A stretch of 64,000 nt of DNA. Origin: Patescibacteria group bacterium (GTDB lineage Bacteria; Patescibacteriota; Minisyncoccia; Phycocordibacterales; PALSA-1337). The notes beneath the pieces are model-generated. The model saw only the letters and a list, made by a program, of their open reading frames with translations, searched no databases and had not been told where the DNA came from. Positions 9,606-12,352 of this stretch are shown here, piece after piece. Location: positions 26,092 through 90,091 of the forward strand of contig JBBTRA010000004.1 in the NCBI GenBank assembly GCA_038065415.1. The letters are read 5' to 3'. Numbering within the stretch: position 1 is the stretch's first letter; every line of letters begins with the position of its first letter. The position numbers and the translations under genes were made by a program.

Positions 9606-9634
9606 TTGACTTTCTATATATATTGTGTTAATAC
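9606..9634 (+). promoter_or_regulatory. sigma-70-type promoter (TTGACT-17-TAATAC) for PheRS-like copy 1
   Basis: Hexamers were read directly. The -10 region and start-region block 'tgtgTTAATACtTACTCA' is duplicated upstream of copy 2. Confidence 0.45.
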
Positions 9635-9687
9635 TTACTCAAACAAGGAGAATCCTTACGATCTTTAACAACAGGAGAAAGCAACCT

Positions 9688-10800
9688 ATGAAAAAAGAAG
9701 TCATGGCTCCAGAACTGCTGGCAAAATCGCTTGCAGTTCCTGACCTTTCGGACCCAAAGAACGGGATCAACGCGATAAATCTAGTCGTTGAGCGCATCAT
9801 AAAATCCCTGAGTAATTCCTTCGGGCCTCTGCCGATCGATGTGTACCGGGCATCGCCGGAAGTTTCAGTCGAAGAAAATTACGATCTTCTTCTCTTCCCT
9901 GCTGACAATGCAGGAAGATCATCCCGCTACACCCGTTATGTCAACGATACGACGGTGCTTCGCACGCATACATCAGCTGCTATTCCCGCCTGGCTCAAAA
10001 GGTCAGGAAAGAATCATGATGATCAAATCGTCGTCGCACCTGGCATCTGTTATCGCAGGGACGTAGTTGATCAGACCCACTGTGGCGAACCTCATCAAAT
10101 GGATGTGTGGCGCATCAGGAAAGGCCTTCCGCGGCTAGAAAGACCTGAGTTAATCGCCCTGATCGAAGTACTGATCAACGGCGTGATTCCTGGGTATCGA
10201 TACCGTGCGAACGAAGTGGTTCACCCATATACCATCAACGGCCTGGAGGTAGAGATCTTGGTCGGTGATACGTGGATGGAAATCCTCGAATGTGGCGAAG
10301 CACACCCGACAATCCTCAAAAATGCAGGCCTCGATCCTGCGGAATACTCTGGATTGGCCATGGGTATGGGTCTTGATCGGCTCGCAATGATCATCAAGGG
10401 AATTGATGACATCCGCGTCTTCCGTTCAACTGACCCTCGCATCACCAAGCAGATGACCACCTTGCACAAGTACGTTTCTGTTTCAAATCAACCGGCAACA
10501 AAGCGTGTCCTCTCATACTCGGCATCCGTCGACAAAAATGAAGAGGATATCTGCGAAGCCATTCGGGATGTACTTGGAGCCAATGTGATCCATCTTGAAG
10601 AGGTAAAAGTGGAGGAGTTCCCCTACGAAAGCCTCGAACCCATCGCCCGTGAACGGCTCGGGATCCATCCAAGCCAAAAGAACGTGGTAGCCACGCTTAT
10701 CTTCCGCTCAATCGAGGGCTCGCTGCCCAAAAAGACAGTAAATGAGTGGATGCAGAACATTTACCCACGCCTGAATGAAGGCTCGAAGGGTTACATGTAA
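9688..10800 (+). CDS. monomeric (mitochondrial-type) phenylalanyl-tRNA synthetase-like protein: PheS-like class II core + C-terminal FDX-ACB domain
   Basis: PheS motif 1 'LRTHTS', motif 2 'ICYRRD..DQTH...PHQ' and motif 3 '[39 protein letters not shown]' are all present. The C-terminal ~100 aa has an FDX-ACB-like pattern. The start was chosen at MKKEV by alignment with its paralog. Confidence 0.7.
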   Translation: [370 protein letters not shown]

Positions 10801-10808
10801 CCAACCCC

Positions 10809-10839
10809 GCGGTACCAATCTTTGGTACCGCTTTTATTT
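10809..10839 (+). terminator. intrinsic terminator
   Basis: Stem gcggtaccaa-tct-ttggtaccgc followed by TTTTATTT. Confidence 0.65.
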
Positions 10840-10856
10840 ACACCGTGAAAACTTCG

Positions 10857-10885
10857 TTGACCAGTTTTTTTCTTTGTGTTAATAC
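10857..10885 (+). promoter_or_regulatory. sigma-70-type promoter (TTGACC-17-TAATAC) for PheRS-like copy 2
   Basis: It has the same architecture as the copy-1 promoter and shares a block of about 25 nt with it. Confidence 0.45.
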
Positions 10886-10938
10886 GTACTCAGCAATAGA
10901 GTCCAAGTTCCTTAACATACTCTCAACCAAGGACCTGC

Positions 10939-12066
10939 ATGAAAAATACCATGTCTCCAGAGGAGGTTGCTGAATCTTTGGCGATTCTCGACCTTTCAGA
11001 TCCAAAAAATGGGATCCATGCGGTGAACCTCGTACTTGATAAAATCTTCACACATTTTTCAGGTACTACCGCATATCCCGCTCCACAAATCCATCGCGGT
11101 ACGCCACTCACAACGGTGAAGGAAAATTTTGGTAATTTGCTTTTTCCTGAACACAGCAAAACACGATCATCGACCTACACACGGTATGCTTCGGCGGATA
11201 CTGTTCTGCGCACGCAGAGTTCCTCTCTCGTACCCCCTGTACTCGTTAGCCTTCACAAAGCAGGGCTCTCGGATGGACTGATACTCTGTCCGAGTATCTG
11301 CTATCGACGACTGAAGGCTGCAGGACGTTTGCACGCGAGCGAGCCGCACCAGTTGGACATCTGGTATATCAAAAAAGGACCACCCTTCTTGGGATCGAAG
11401 TCTTTGTTTGATTTTACAGATGCTATCGTTGCCGCCATTCTCCCCACACATGCGTACACCCTCAAAAAAGTGGAGAAGGACATTAGCGTCTCCCATCCCT
11501 ATTTGCATGAAGCCTATAAGGGCAGAGTGTTTTATGGGGGTAAAGACGTAAGCTTTATGGAAGCAGGCGTGGTTCACACACGCTTTCTCGAAAGCCTGTG
11601 TATTGATGGTTCAGCATATTCTGCAGTCTCTGCAGGAATCATGCTCGATCGCGTCGCGATGCTCATCAAAAATATGGACGACATACGGCTGCTTCGATCC
11701 CCTGATGTACGCATTCGAGAGCAGATGAAAACGCTGGATCGCTTCGTGCCCGTGTCGAAATTTCCACCGATACTGCGCGACTTCTCCTTTGTGAGGGCCG
11801 ACAAGACTACTGAGGAGGAGATTTATTCGATGATTCAGAGAGCACTGGGTGACGCGGCGTACCTGCTCGAAGAGGCATCGATACTTGCCCAAGTTCCGTA
11901 TCAGGACCTACCCGAAAGCGCCCGCATTCGCCTCGGCATCAAACCGTTCCAGAAAAATATTCTCGTACGAATCACCTTGCGATCTCATGAGAGGACTCTT
12001 CTCAAAAAAGAGGCGAACGAAATCGCCGAAAGAGTTCAGTACGCACTTGCACAACCGGTAGCCTAA
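10939..12066 (+). CDS. divergent paralog of the monomeric PheRS-like protein (degenerate catalytic motifs) + FDX-ACB domain
   Basis: Collinear with copy 1 ('[15 protein letters not shown]', 'TVLRTQSSS', 'ICYRRL....SEPHQLDIW'). Motif 1 His becomes Gln, motif 3 loses 'CGxxHP' and the Gly triplet, and the FDX-ACB hallmark '[11 protein letters not shown]' is retained. Confidence 0.6.
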   Translation: [375 protein letters not shown]

Positions 12067-12096
12067 CCATTACTTTCACGAGTAATGGTTTTTATT
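12067..12096 (+). terminator. intrinsic terminator
   Basis: Stem ccattact-ttcacg-agtaatgg followed by TTTTT. Confidence 0.5.
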
Positions 12097-12352
12097 ATTT
12101 ATCCGTTCGATGAACACACCCCGCCCAGCAACACGGACGACGCTTCCCTCCAATGAGCTCCTCAACAACCCTCTCGATGTGCTGCTTCCTTGTTTCAAGC
12201 CTCTTAACTGAGATTGTCCAGCAGATCCATTCATTGCGTGCGAGCGGCGTGATATCTTCCCAGGCCGCAAGAGCCCGCGAAGATGCAAGTGCTGTGCGCA
12301 GATCATCAGGCAATTTGTGTGCCGTGCCGCCAGAAATAATTTTTTTGGACAT
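12095..12352 (-). CDS. YdeI/OmpD-associated family protein
   Basis: 'LPDDLRTALA....AWEDITPLARNEWICWTISVKRLETRKQHIERVVEELIGGKR' matches the family pattern. Confidence 0.55.
   Translation of the reverse strand: MSKKIISGGTAHKLPDDLRTALASSRALAAWEDITPLARNEWICWTISVKRLETRKQHIERVVEELIGGKRRPCCWAGCVHRTDK

Follow-up and report, generated by a model that had tools for sequence, protein, structure and literature searches.

Two tandem SrmL-family genes for single-chain PheRS-like proteins in a Parcubacteria-like genome

We describe here a pair of adjacent plus-strand genes, copy 1 and copy 2, within a 64,000-nt stretch of contig JBBTRA010000004.1 from a Patescibacteria group bacterium (the window). Each encodes a class II core of the type found in PheS of phenylalanyl-tRNA synthetase (PheRS), followed directly by a ferredoxin-fold anticodon-binding (FDX-ACB) domain, and both are members of the SrmL family, which is distinct from PheS and from the mitochondrial PheRS, FARS2. 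The original prediction, which was made from the sequence alone, had reported two tandem open reading frames (ORFs) with a PheS class II core, and this holds, with all of the peptides that it quoted being present in the translations. The frame of copy 1 is open from GTG 9625, but translation probably begins at ATG 9688, as this codon is preceded by AGGAG at 9673-9677 and as most homologues are 371 residues in length and cover 100% of the 370-residue product. The two proteins are 38% identical from end to end (E 4e-85) and the two genes are 49% identical at the nucleotide level overall, and 69% identical over the first 30 codons. The closest relatives of copy 1, at 60-77% identity, come from metagenome-assembled genomes of Pacebacteria, Giovannonibacteria, Nomurabacteria and similar lineages, and the source organism is a Parcubacteria-like member of the candidate phyla radiation (CPR). 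The features of the locus are listed in Table 1.

Table 1. Features of the copy 1/copy 2 locus (nucleotide positions are those of the window).
Feature	Position	Strand	Description
Copy 1 promoter	9606..9634	+	-35 TTGACT 9606-9611, 17-nt spacer, extended -10 TGtTAATAC 9626-9634; predicted, read from the sequence
19-nt block, copy 1	9623..9641	+	TTGTGTTAATACTTACTCA; lies over the extended -10 and the likely start site
Copy 1	9688..10800	+	SrmL-family single-chain PheRS-like ligase, 370 aa, CPR 'group A' type
Copy 1 class II core	9784-10455	+	~aa 33-256
Copy 1 FDX-ACB-like domain	10483-10797	+	~aa 266-370; divergent
Terminator between copies	10809..10841	+	GCGGTACCAA-TCT-TTGGTACCGC then TTTTATTTAC; intrinsic, predicted
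Copy 2 promoter	10857..10885	+	-35 TTGACC 10857-10862, 17-nt spacer, extended -10 TGtTAATAC 10877-10885; predicted, read from the sequence
19-nt block, copy 2	10874..10892	+	TTGTGTTAATACGTACTCA
Copy 2	10939..12066	+	Divergent SrmL paralogue, intact 375-aa ORF; AAGGA at 10929-10933
Copy 2 core	11008-11724	+	~aa 24-262; remodelled active site
Copy 2 FDX-ACB domain	11755-12054	+	aa 273-372; canonical
Terminator-like hairpin 3' of copy 2	12065..12100	+	AACCATTACT-TTCACG-AGTAATGGTT then TTTATTATTT; predicted

The assignment of both genes to SrmL is based on profile scores. The NCBIfam model NF051887, 'PheS-related mystery ligase SrmL', is an equivalog model of 349 positions with a curated cutoff of 300 bits, and it is passed by copy 1 with 387.6 bits (model positions 2-349), by copy 2 with 304.8 bits (3-348) and by the orthologue of copy 2 in a second genome, P0122, with 335.7 bits. 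All of the bacterial, archaeal and mitochondrial PheS models score far below their cutoffs, including TIGR00468 (bacterial PheS, cutoff 237.45 bits; copy 1 117.0, copy 2 42.9) and TIGR00469 (pheS_mito, representing PheRS-M or FARS2, cutoff 258.35 bits; copy 1 133.5, copy 2 67.1), with 133.5 bits being the best score of either copy against any PheS model. The original prediction had named better hidden Markov model scores in some other family, combined with a full pheST operon elsewhere, as grounds for abandoning its assignment, and in its scores SrmL has proved to be such a family. The SepRS model gives a match at E 7e-4 only, and the PylRS models give none at E ≤ 1 for either copy. Pfam tRNA-synt_2d is found in both proteins (128.8 bits in copy 1, 58.3 in copy 2) and neither contains PF02912, the N-terminal coiled-coil, while FDX-ACB (gathering threshold 31.1 bits) passes in copy 2 at 33.3 bits and falls below in copy 1 at 12.8. 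Proteins from Streptomyces avermitilis, S. platensis, Nocardia crassostreae, Myxococcus and Archangium carry the SrmL name in RefSeq and UniRef, and a literature search returned no paper that uses it or that describes a bacterial or phage monomeric PheRS-like enzyme. The SrmL proteins are single-chain, class IIc and synthetase-like, with a length of ~360-380 residues, and form a clade that is scattered widely and is in part mobile. In them the PheS-type core is joined directly to an FDX-ACB RNA-binding domain of the kind seen in PheT-B8 and FARS2, and they lack the coiled-coil arm, the beta subunit and the editing domain.

The predicted structures extend the two-domain layout to both proteins. 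AlphaFold2 models built from a 47-sequence alignment are of high confidence for copy 1 (predicted local distance difference test 95.0, predicted template modelling score 0.91) and for copy 2 (92.8 and 0.90, respectively), and they have the same C-terminal fold despite the FDX-ACB match of copy 1 lying below the Pfam threshold. Hence the fusion of core and FDX-ACB that had been claimed for both copies is supported, by Pfam for copy 2 and by fold for the two of them. The top Foldseek matches in the PDB are for both copies the closed state of human mitochondrial PheRS (3cmq, 5mg*, 8p8x), with template modelling (TM) scores of 0.76-0.81. The superposition on closed FARS2 spans both domains over ~380-415 columns (TM 0.77-0.81 for copy 1), while the open, tRNA-bound state (3tup) gives a TM of ~0.6 and bacterial PheS structures superpose on the core alone (core TM 0.85). 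PheT chains are also present among the fold matches.

That the layout is like that of FARS2 does not make the genes orthologues of it. In a neighbour-joining tree of 75 sequences (372 columns, 200 bootstraps), which included the named SrmL proteins from Streptomyces, Archangium and Myxococcus and a FARS2 sequence that was checked against PDB 5mgh, SrmL is monophyletic with respect to PheS and FARS2 with 100% bootstrap support. The PheS pair is also supported at 100%, and the branching order of SrmL, PheS and FARS2 is left as an unresolved trichotomy. When the C-terminal domains were scored against each other's profiles, with PDB alignments supplying the four sequences of PheT B8, those of SrmL, FARS2 and PheT-B8 came out at roughly equal distances from each other. 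A specific kinship with FARS2 was therefore dropped. Of the original description as a FARS2-like single chain, the architecture stands, and the implied membership of PheS or FARS2 gives way to a separate clade. From these sequence comparisons, the term 'mitochondrial-type' is right for the layout but is not evidence of orthology, and common descent of the fusion does not follow from the resemblance, which is architectural.

The active site of copy 1 is standard for the family and has several residues in common with that of a PheRS. Compared with E. coli PheS, copy 1 retains the arginines of motifs 2 and 3, both His and Ser in LRTHTS and the HQ.D triad, and its residues T182 and A224, which are 98-100% conserved in the family, align to T251 and A294 of the E. 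coli enzyme. In E. coli these two gatekeepers determine the exclusion of para-substituents, such that enlarging them admits para-substituted Phe analogues (PMC3275996). Across the 47-sequence alignment, which contains both copies, 25 columns are invariant (including R123, R124, H131, H136, H179, Y181, E201, G203, G226 and R231), and of the 83 positions that are at least 85% conserved, copy 1 keeps 81 and copy 2 keeps 67. The family as a whole differs from PheRS at several sites, with FPF becoming HPY, FHQ.EG becoming PHQ.D, GxGMVHP becoming ECGEAHP and HPAR/DTF becoming NAGR/YTR. The first of these is no argument against Phe as substrate since human cytosolic PheRS, a genuine PheRS, has NPY at the same position, and the attempt to read Phe specificity from HPY versus FPF was abandoned once this NPY had been confirmed. 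The 'RD' of the FPxxxRD motif was likewise given up as a guide to tRNA specificity, as the literature places G34 recognition elsewhere.

Copy 2 is quite different in this respect, in that its active site is atypical without being in decay. The conserved positions that it has lost are concentrated in the active site (G119S, the motif-2 Asp125, T182L, G185A, E198S, C202A, G222A, A224S and the motif-3 G228M), and its gatekeeper positions are occupied by Leu189 and Ser231 instead of Thr and Ala, yet none of the 25 family-invariant residues, among which are both catalytic arginines, is missing from it. Copy 2 has few close relatives, but one of them, P0122, holds the same tandem position beside a copy 1 orthologue in the second genome (L004), in which the upstream genes are also those of the window (Peptidase_S51, a nucleotidyltransferase (NTase)-like gene and NMT1/ABC transport genes). 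Between the window and L004, identity is 69% for copy 1, 59-69% for the neighbouring genes and 53% for copy 2, and the ratio of nonsynonymous to synonymous changes (pN/pS) is 0.35 for copy 2 and 0.25-0.28 for the others, with synonymous sites being saturated. Copy 2 evolves ~1.7 times faster and yet is clearly constrained, being under purifying selection. Five of its replacement residues are identical in P0122, and together with the clustering of the losses this points to a remodelled site under new constraint rather than to decay. None of the tests for a pseudogene (frameshift or stop, relaxed selection, absence of an orthologue) gave a positive result for copy 2, its ORF being intact and its orthologue present. 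The original prediction had described copy 2 as degraded, and what survives of that description is the unusual active site. One of the changes it had cited, the replacement of the motif 1 His by Gln, is no degeneracy, as E. coli PheS itself reads LRTQTS where copy 1 has LRTHTS, and its suggestion that copy 2 might be an editing paralogue is unlikely because there is no editing domain.

In the Peptidase_S51 neighbourhood just mentioned, the PepE-like peptidase gene is divergent from copy 1 and is overlapped by 53 nt by the gene for a weakly NTase-like protein of 289 residues (both within 8097-9558, minus strand). Both genes are kept upstream of the pair in L004, and in an unrelated CPR genome, L005, SrmL likewise has an S51 gene upstream.

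One account of such a pair would be that a mitochondrial-type PheRS gene was recently duplicated in tandem and that the second copy is decaying into a pseudo-synthetase. The genes are adjacent, collinear and on the same strand, they have a promoter block in common, the nucleotide identity of their first 30 codons exceeds that of the genes overall, and several active-site residues of copy 2 are lost. We nevertheless consider this account very improbable. Group A, the CPR clade that contains copy 1, has 96.5% bootstrap support and excludes copy 2, whose own clade has 100% support, and the two were joined in 0 of 200 bootstraps. The copy 2 clade falls, with weak support, among CPR forms that have a recognisable FDX-ACB. 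Discrete character states agree, as copy 2 has SK[FY]PP..RD.SF, LRSHER.L and EAN, those of another subgroup and the ancestral states of the family, in place of the derived states of group A, which include.EGSLP and VN.WM. Hence the tree and the discrete states indicate that the pair represents an old paralogy or an acquisition and not a fresh tandem duplication, and the orthologue at the same position, the purifying selection, the confident fold and the replacements conserved between orthologues all speak against decay. The duplication followed by divergence that had been proposed is thus not sustained as a recent event.

The regulatory sequences at the locus are as originally read, with each copy having its own TTGAC(T/C)-17-TAATAC promoter and a terminator intervening between them. 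The -10 hexamers are at 9629-9634 and 10880-10885 and the TG dinucleotides of the extended elements at 9626-9627 and 10877-10878, a consensus scan caught the copy 1 promoter in part, and the distance from the -35 to the ATG is 85 nt in both genes. The pattern TTGAC-N16-18-TAATAC occurs at exactly two sites in the 64 kb, which are those ahead of copy 1 and copy 2. The hairpin of the terminator between the genes (10809-10831) has a 10-bp stem with 6 GC pairs and is followed by a T-run, while the hairpin after copy 2 (12065-12090) has 11 pairs of which 3 are GC and overlaps the copy 2 stop codon. Read in this way, copy 1 and copy 2 are predicted to be separate transcription units. The duplicated promoter block that had been put at about 25 nt is indeed present but measures 19 nt, of which 18 are identical between the two promoters (consensus TTGTGTTAATAC[T/G]TACTCA), and when 3 mismatches are allowed it has two matches in the 64 kb where 0.03 would be expected. 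The likeness between the promoters is restricted to the -35 and this block, as the remainder of the leaders match at 18 of 60 positions, which is the random level, and the block is not found in the orthologous promoters of L004. Given the old paralogy of the pair, so close a match speaks for selection or gene conversion in the service of common regulation, and a common core-promoter block in old paralogues suggests that the two genes may be regulated together, where the block could be a shared operator or the product of promoter conversion. A leader RNA element was rejected, as the 5' leaders are unrelated, fold weakly and are too short for a T-box, and an Rfam search of the window gave nothing besides a tRNA-Asn.

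An alternative reading of the pair is that the two proteins form a heteromer that repeats the division of labour between the alpha and beta subunits of canonical PheRS. Copy 1 combines an intact site with a derived C-terminal domain and copy 2 a remodelled site with a canonical FDX-ACB, the tandem is kept in two genomes with the core-promoter block being common to both copies, and a second SrmL paralogue lies within 10 kb in 5 of 15 sampled group A CPR genomes. Moreover, PheT itself combines B8 with a catalytic-like module that is inactive (PMC3275996), and PheT chains are among the fold matches noted above. We hold a complementary pair of this kind to be quite improbable, however, since most group A genes have no second paralogue in the sampled flanks, the structural template, FARS2, is a monomer (PMC3275996), and the partners vary from genome to genome (B-like, N-terminal-extension type or a second group A copy). 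Three of these second paralogues are at 6778-7998 (minus strand) of L010, 16441-17700 (plus) of L012 and 11291-12526 (plus) of L017; two represent a third type, with an N-terminal extension of ~45 residues, a retained FHQ and 372 bits on NF051887, and one is a second group A copy.

The distribution of SrmL extends well beyond the CPR. It is carried by at least 579 species representatives of GTDB, among them cultured Myxococcota, Actinomycetes, Longimicrobium and Steroidobacter, whose proteins are 41-45% identical over the full length. Full-length genes are found on Azotobacter and Glutamicibacter plasmids and a truncated copy on a resistance plasmid of C. diphtheriae, and these plasmid copies show that the SrmL gene is mobile. 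On the Azotobacter plasmid SrmL (L089, 7974-9086) lies among insertion sequence elements and a VapC/Phd toxin-antitoxin pair. On Glutamicibacter plasmid pGnB68 (L090, 6326-9107) it is 480 nt downstream of, and on the same strand as, a Cmx/CmrA chloramphenicol efflux gene, and on C. diphtheriae FRC0402_p2 (L091, 5173-9038) erm(X) and tet(65) flank the truncated copy on either side. A role as a resistance gene was taken as a lead only, from the cmx, erm(X) and tet(65) neighbours, with the gene occurring on 3 of 72,556 plasmids. PADLOC gave no match that would place SrmL in a defence system, and the neighbours in cultured taxa are unrelated to one another.

SrmL is also found on viral genomes, namely a 635-kb curated 'uncultured phage' record (LR745206.1) and six giant IMG/VR contigs of 145-578 kb, and all of the viral proteins, as well as the two full-length plasmid proteins, pass the SrmL cutoff. 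In one of these (L093) SrmL ends an array of 17 tRNA genes and has a tRNA-Phe(GAA) on both sides (7714-7788 and 9240-9314), and in another (L097) tRNA-Phe(GAA) and tRNA-Val are directly upstream, with the tRNA-Phe being ~120 nt before the match. Permutation of the tRNA labels gives P ~0.006 for adjacency to tRNA-Phe. A third (L094) provides a positive control, as a phage SerRS gene (5142-6413) directly follows five tRNA-Ser genes, which shows that such genomes put synthetases by their cognate tRNAs, and SrmL is 1.6 kb downstream on the same strand. In L095 the start of SrmL overlaps the end of a PNKP-type kinase/phosphatase gene for RNA repair (6898-7995), and the flanks of L096 contain a tmRNA gene only. 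The phage context is supportive evidence, but not proof, that the SrmL family acts on tRNA-Phe. Overall, 17-24 tRNA genes surround SrmL in L093 (4041-9314), L097 (3172-7956) and L094 (67-13443), viral contigs of 415-578 kb, and L092 encodes an RNA-repair HAD domain protein at 5402-5959.

If SrmL does act on tRNA-Phe, the question arises as to whether it does so as the PheRS of the cell or beside one. For the former, the two-subunit PheRS would have been lost in this lineage and copy 1 would be its sole PheRS, a bacterial parallel to the arrangement in mitochondria. Across Parcubacteria-like genomes the conservation of group A proteins is very high (60-77% identity), copy 1 ranks with the best-conserved genes of the block syntenic with L004 (69%), its pocket gatekeepers are PheRS-like, and a redundant synthetase seems costly in genomes as small as those of CPR bacteria. 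In addition, no canonical pheS or pheT was found in the 64-kb window, where tblastn was used and none of the six ORFs of at least 593 residues is PheT; that no pheT is present had also been noted in the original prediction. Such a housekeeping role is highly doubtful, nonetheless, as 64 kb is a small fraction of the genome and the SrmL gene of a CPR relative (L005) is convergent with a canonical pheS (PF02912 plus PF01409). Canonical PheS is also abundant and equally well conserved in Parcubacteria-type CPR. SrmL is patchy and many of its carriers have large genomes, and the cultured large-genome carriers presumably have pheST. The group A C-terminal domain is the most divergent in the family, scoring 3-11 bits on the PheT-B8 profile against a median of 21. 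PheRS-beta subunits have also been described from CPR (PMC5370408). The pheS gene of L005, the abundance of PheS in CPR, the CPR PheRS-beta subunits and the large-genome carriers together indicate that SrmL is most likely an accessory enzyme beside a canonical PheRS. Coexistence of pheS with SrmL in group A carriers was also sought by comparing the match lists of the two, and only the L005 contig was common to them.

We propose that copy 1 and its relatives are auxiliary, editing-free, one-chain enzymes that would act on tRNA-Phe beside the canonical PheRS, with copy 2 being a specialised or regulatory derivative, and from what the sequences offer we see the case for and against this as evenly balanced. 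Copy 1 would bind ATP together with phenylalanine, or a very close analogue, form the aminoacyl-adenylate and transfer the amino acid to tRNA-Phe, which the C-terminal domain would hold after a closed-to-open swing like that of FARS2. It would thus serve as an auxiliary PheRS, free of editing, next to the canonical enzyme. For copy 2, the loss of the motif-2 Asp, of Gly228 in motif 3 and of both gatekeepers makes it most likely that its substrate is altered or that it is not catalytic and serves in RNA binding or regulation.

Several observations weigh against this proposal, beginning with the fact that the curators at NCBI label SrmL a 'mystery ligase'. The motif-2 Phe that stacks on adenine (FHQ) is Pro in most members (EPHQ) and the GxGMVHP segment has two new glutamates (ECGEAHP), such that the binding of ATP or of the amino acid may differ from that in PheRS. 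FARS2 reads G34 by means of Asp364, Phe366, Ser375 and Arg414 (PMC7540514), and these residues are not conserved in SrmL, which has an insertion of ~12 residues and an E-x-x-Y motif in this region, and recognition of tRNA-Phe is therefore not demonstrable from sequence. Specifically, Asp364 and Phe366 fall on non-equivalent residues, Ser375 corresponds to an invariant Asn and there is no C-terminal Arg, although the alignment is uncertain in this segment. The genomic context has its own weaknesses, as the L093 and L097 phages are related (68% identity), making their tRNA-Phe adjacency essentially one conserved observation, and there is no adjacent tRNA-Phe in four viral loci, L094, where SrmL is inside tRNA arrays, L092, L095 and L100. 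ARAGORN found no associated tRNA gene in 60 bacterial loci, and all-against-all clustering of the ORFs from 88 loci, with a filter on third-position GC content (GC3) against antisense ORFs in high-GC DNA, found no neighbour common across lineages. A dedicated tRNA partner in the style of pylS/pylT was rejected for the same reason, there being none in the 60 loci, and the only tRNA of the window is the tRNA-Asn, 7 kb away.

The same observations bring up an alternative in which SrmL activates not Phe but another amino acid, or an aromatic analogue, and loads it on a tRNA or some other acceptor for a purpose outside translation, such as cell-envelope or secondary-metabolite chemistry. The family-specific changes in the active site (HPY, PHQ.D, ECGEAHP and NAGR/YTR) and the lack of conservation of the G34-reading residues are in keeping with it, as are the wealth of secondary metabolism in carriers such as Myxococcota and Streptomyces and the position of some CPR loci near peptidoglycan, polyamine and peptidase genes. 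A different substrate of this type is unlikely in our estimation, because both gatekeepers of the Phe pocket are kept, NPY is found in a genuine PheRS, the neighbourhoods are heterogeneous with no conserved biosynthetic neighbour, and the phage copies that are in tRNA arrays by tRNA-Phe represent a translation context.

The proposal of an auxiliary, editing-free enzyme on tRNA-Phe could also be taken considerably further. SrmL might be a true, self-sufficient one-chain PheRS of bacteria and huge phages, which would make it the smallest synthetase known and the prokaryotic counterpart, and possibly the source, of mitochondrial PheRS, in which case the tandem pair might split the job between a catalytic copy 1 and an RNA-binding or regulatory copy 2 and so re-enact the alpha/beta arrangement. 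We think it decidedly unlikely that all of this is correct, but the consequences are of interest. A 2010 review (PMC3275996) describes the mitochondrial PheRS as the smallest synthetase known and as the one known case of a monomer among synthetases with a class II core, and the ontology of AARS Online has FARS2 (PheRS-M) as the sole single-chain form of PheRS (PMC11580382). SrmL has already been recognised and named by curators, and it represents a one-chain layout in prokaryotes and phages that, at ~360-375 residues, is shorter than the mitochondrial enzyme. Should SrmL be found to charge tRNA-Phe, it would constitute a fourth form of PheRS, huge phages would be able to carry an entire PheRS as one small gene, the question of where the mitochondrial enzyme came from would be reopened, and a compact candidate scaffold for the engineering of the genetic code would be at hand. 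Should it do otherwise, it would be a new case of a synthetase paralogue that was recruited to other chemistry. In either event the pair in the window offers a natural contrast between a family-standard site in copy 1 and the changed pocket gatekeeper positions of copy 2.

Some of the neighbouring genes recur in other CPR loci. In ten group A loci (L001 at 7873-14920, L003 at 11219-16895 and eight more) SrmL is convergent with a LysRS-like gene, the product of which has 482 residues and scores 238 bits against a LysRS cutoff of 468. After this come two genes of the DCD family and then genes for a methyltransferase, an Orn/Arg decarboxylase and a Peptidase_S66 of the LD-carboxypeptidase/MccF type, an arrangement that may reflect lineage synteny only. 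In seven CPR loci (L001 at 6318-6647 on the plus strand, L002, L010, L011, L013, L015 and L017) an ORF of 107-109 residues, for which neither Pfam nor NCBIfam gives a match, overlaps the SrmL start codon by 4 nt, and its product could be a partner whose translation is coupled to that of SrmL; the window has no such ORF. Elsewhere in the window are the genes for ThrRS (44513-46330, plus strand) and HisRS (50645-51988, plus), two adjacent genes for GH130 mannoside phosphorylases (18735-21788, plus), an AddA/UvrD-type helicase-nuclease of 1022 residues (56277-59345, minus) and a 629-residue ORF (29296-31185, minus) that is among the largest in the window and has no Pfam match at E ≤ 1e-4.

Among the closest known systems is the SrmL family as defined by NF051887, whose members from Streptomyces, Myxococcus, Archangium and Nocardia agree with the window proteins in length, in their two domains and in the signature motifs. 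The window proteins differ in scoring much lower, at 388 and 305 bits compared with 514-542 for those from Myxococcota and Actinomycetes; copy 2 clears the cutoff only narrowly and its active site is remodelled, and a tandem of two subtypes is not the usual state. Mitochondrial PheRS (FARS2; 3CMQ, 3TUP) is similar to SrmL in being a single chain in which a class IIc core is directly followed by FDX-ACB, with neither a beta subunit nor an editing domain. In contrast to SrmL, FARS2 keeps FPF, FHQLE and the G34-reading Asp364, Phe366 and Arg414, all of which SrmL lacks, and it has an insertion of ~40 residues after motif 2, while the insertion in SrmL, of ~12 residues, is in the C-terminal domain. 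That of FARS2 is no nearer to the C-terminal domain of SrmL than it is to PheT-B8. Bacterial PheS has a homologous core (99 bits for E. coli PheS, ~30% identity, core TM 0.85) and B8 of PheT is homologous to the C-terminal domain of SrmL, where the B8-like domain is fused in cis, but bacterial PheS differs from the window copies in having the PF02912 coiled-coil and a separate beta subunit with an editing module. Finally, EpmA/PoxA, HisZ, AsnA, the amino acid:carrier-protein ligases, PylRS and SepRS resemble SrmL as stand-alone paralogues of a synthetase core that coexist with the housekeeping enzyme. Unlike EpmA, HisZ and AsnA, SrmL keeps a complete domain of the anticodon-binding type, and no gene for EF-P, HisG, a carrier protein or a dedicated tRNA was found nearby.

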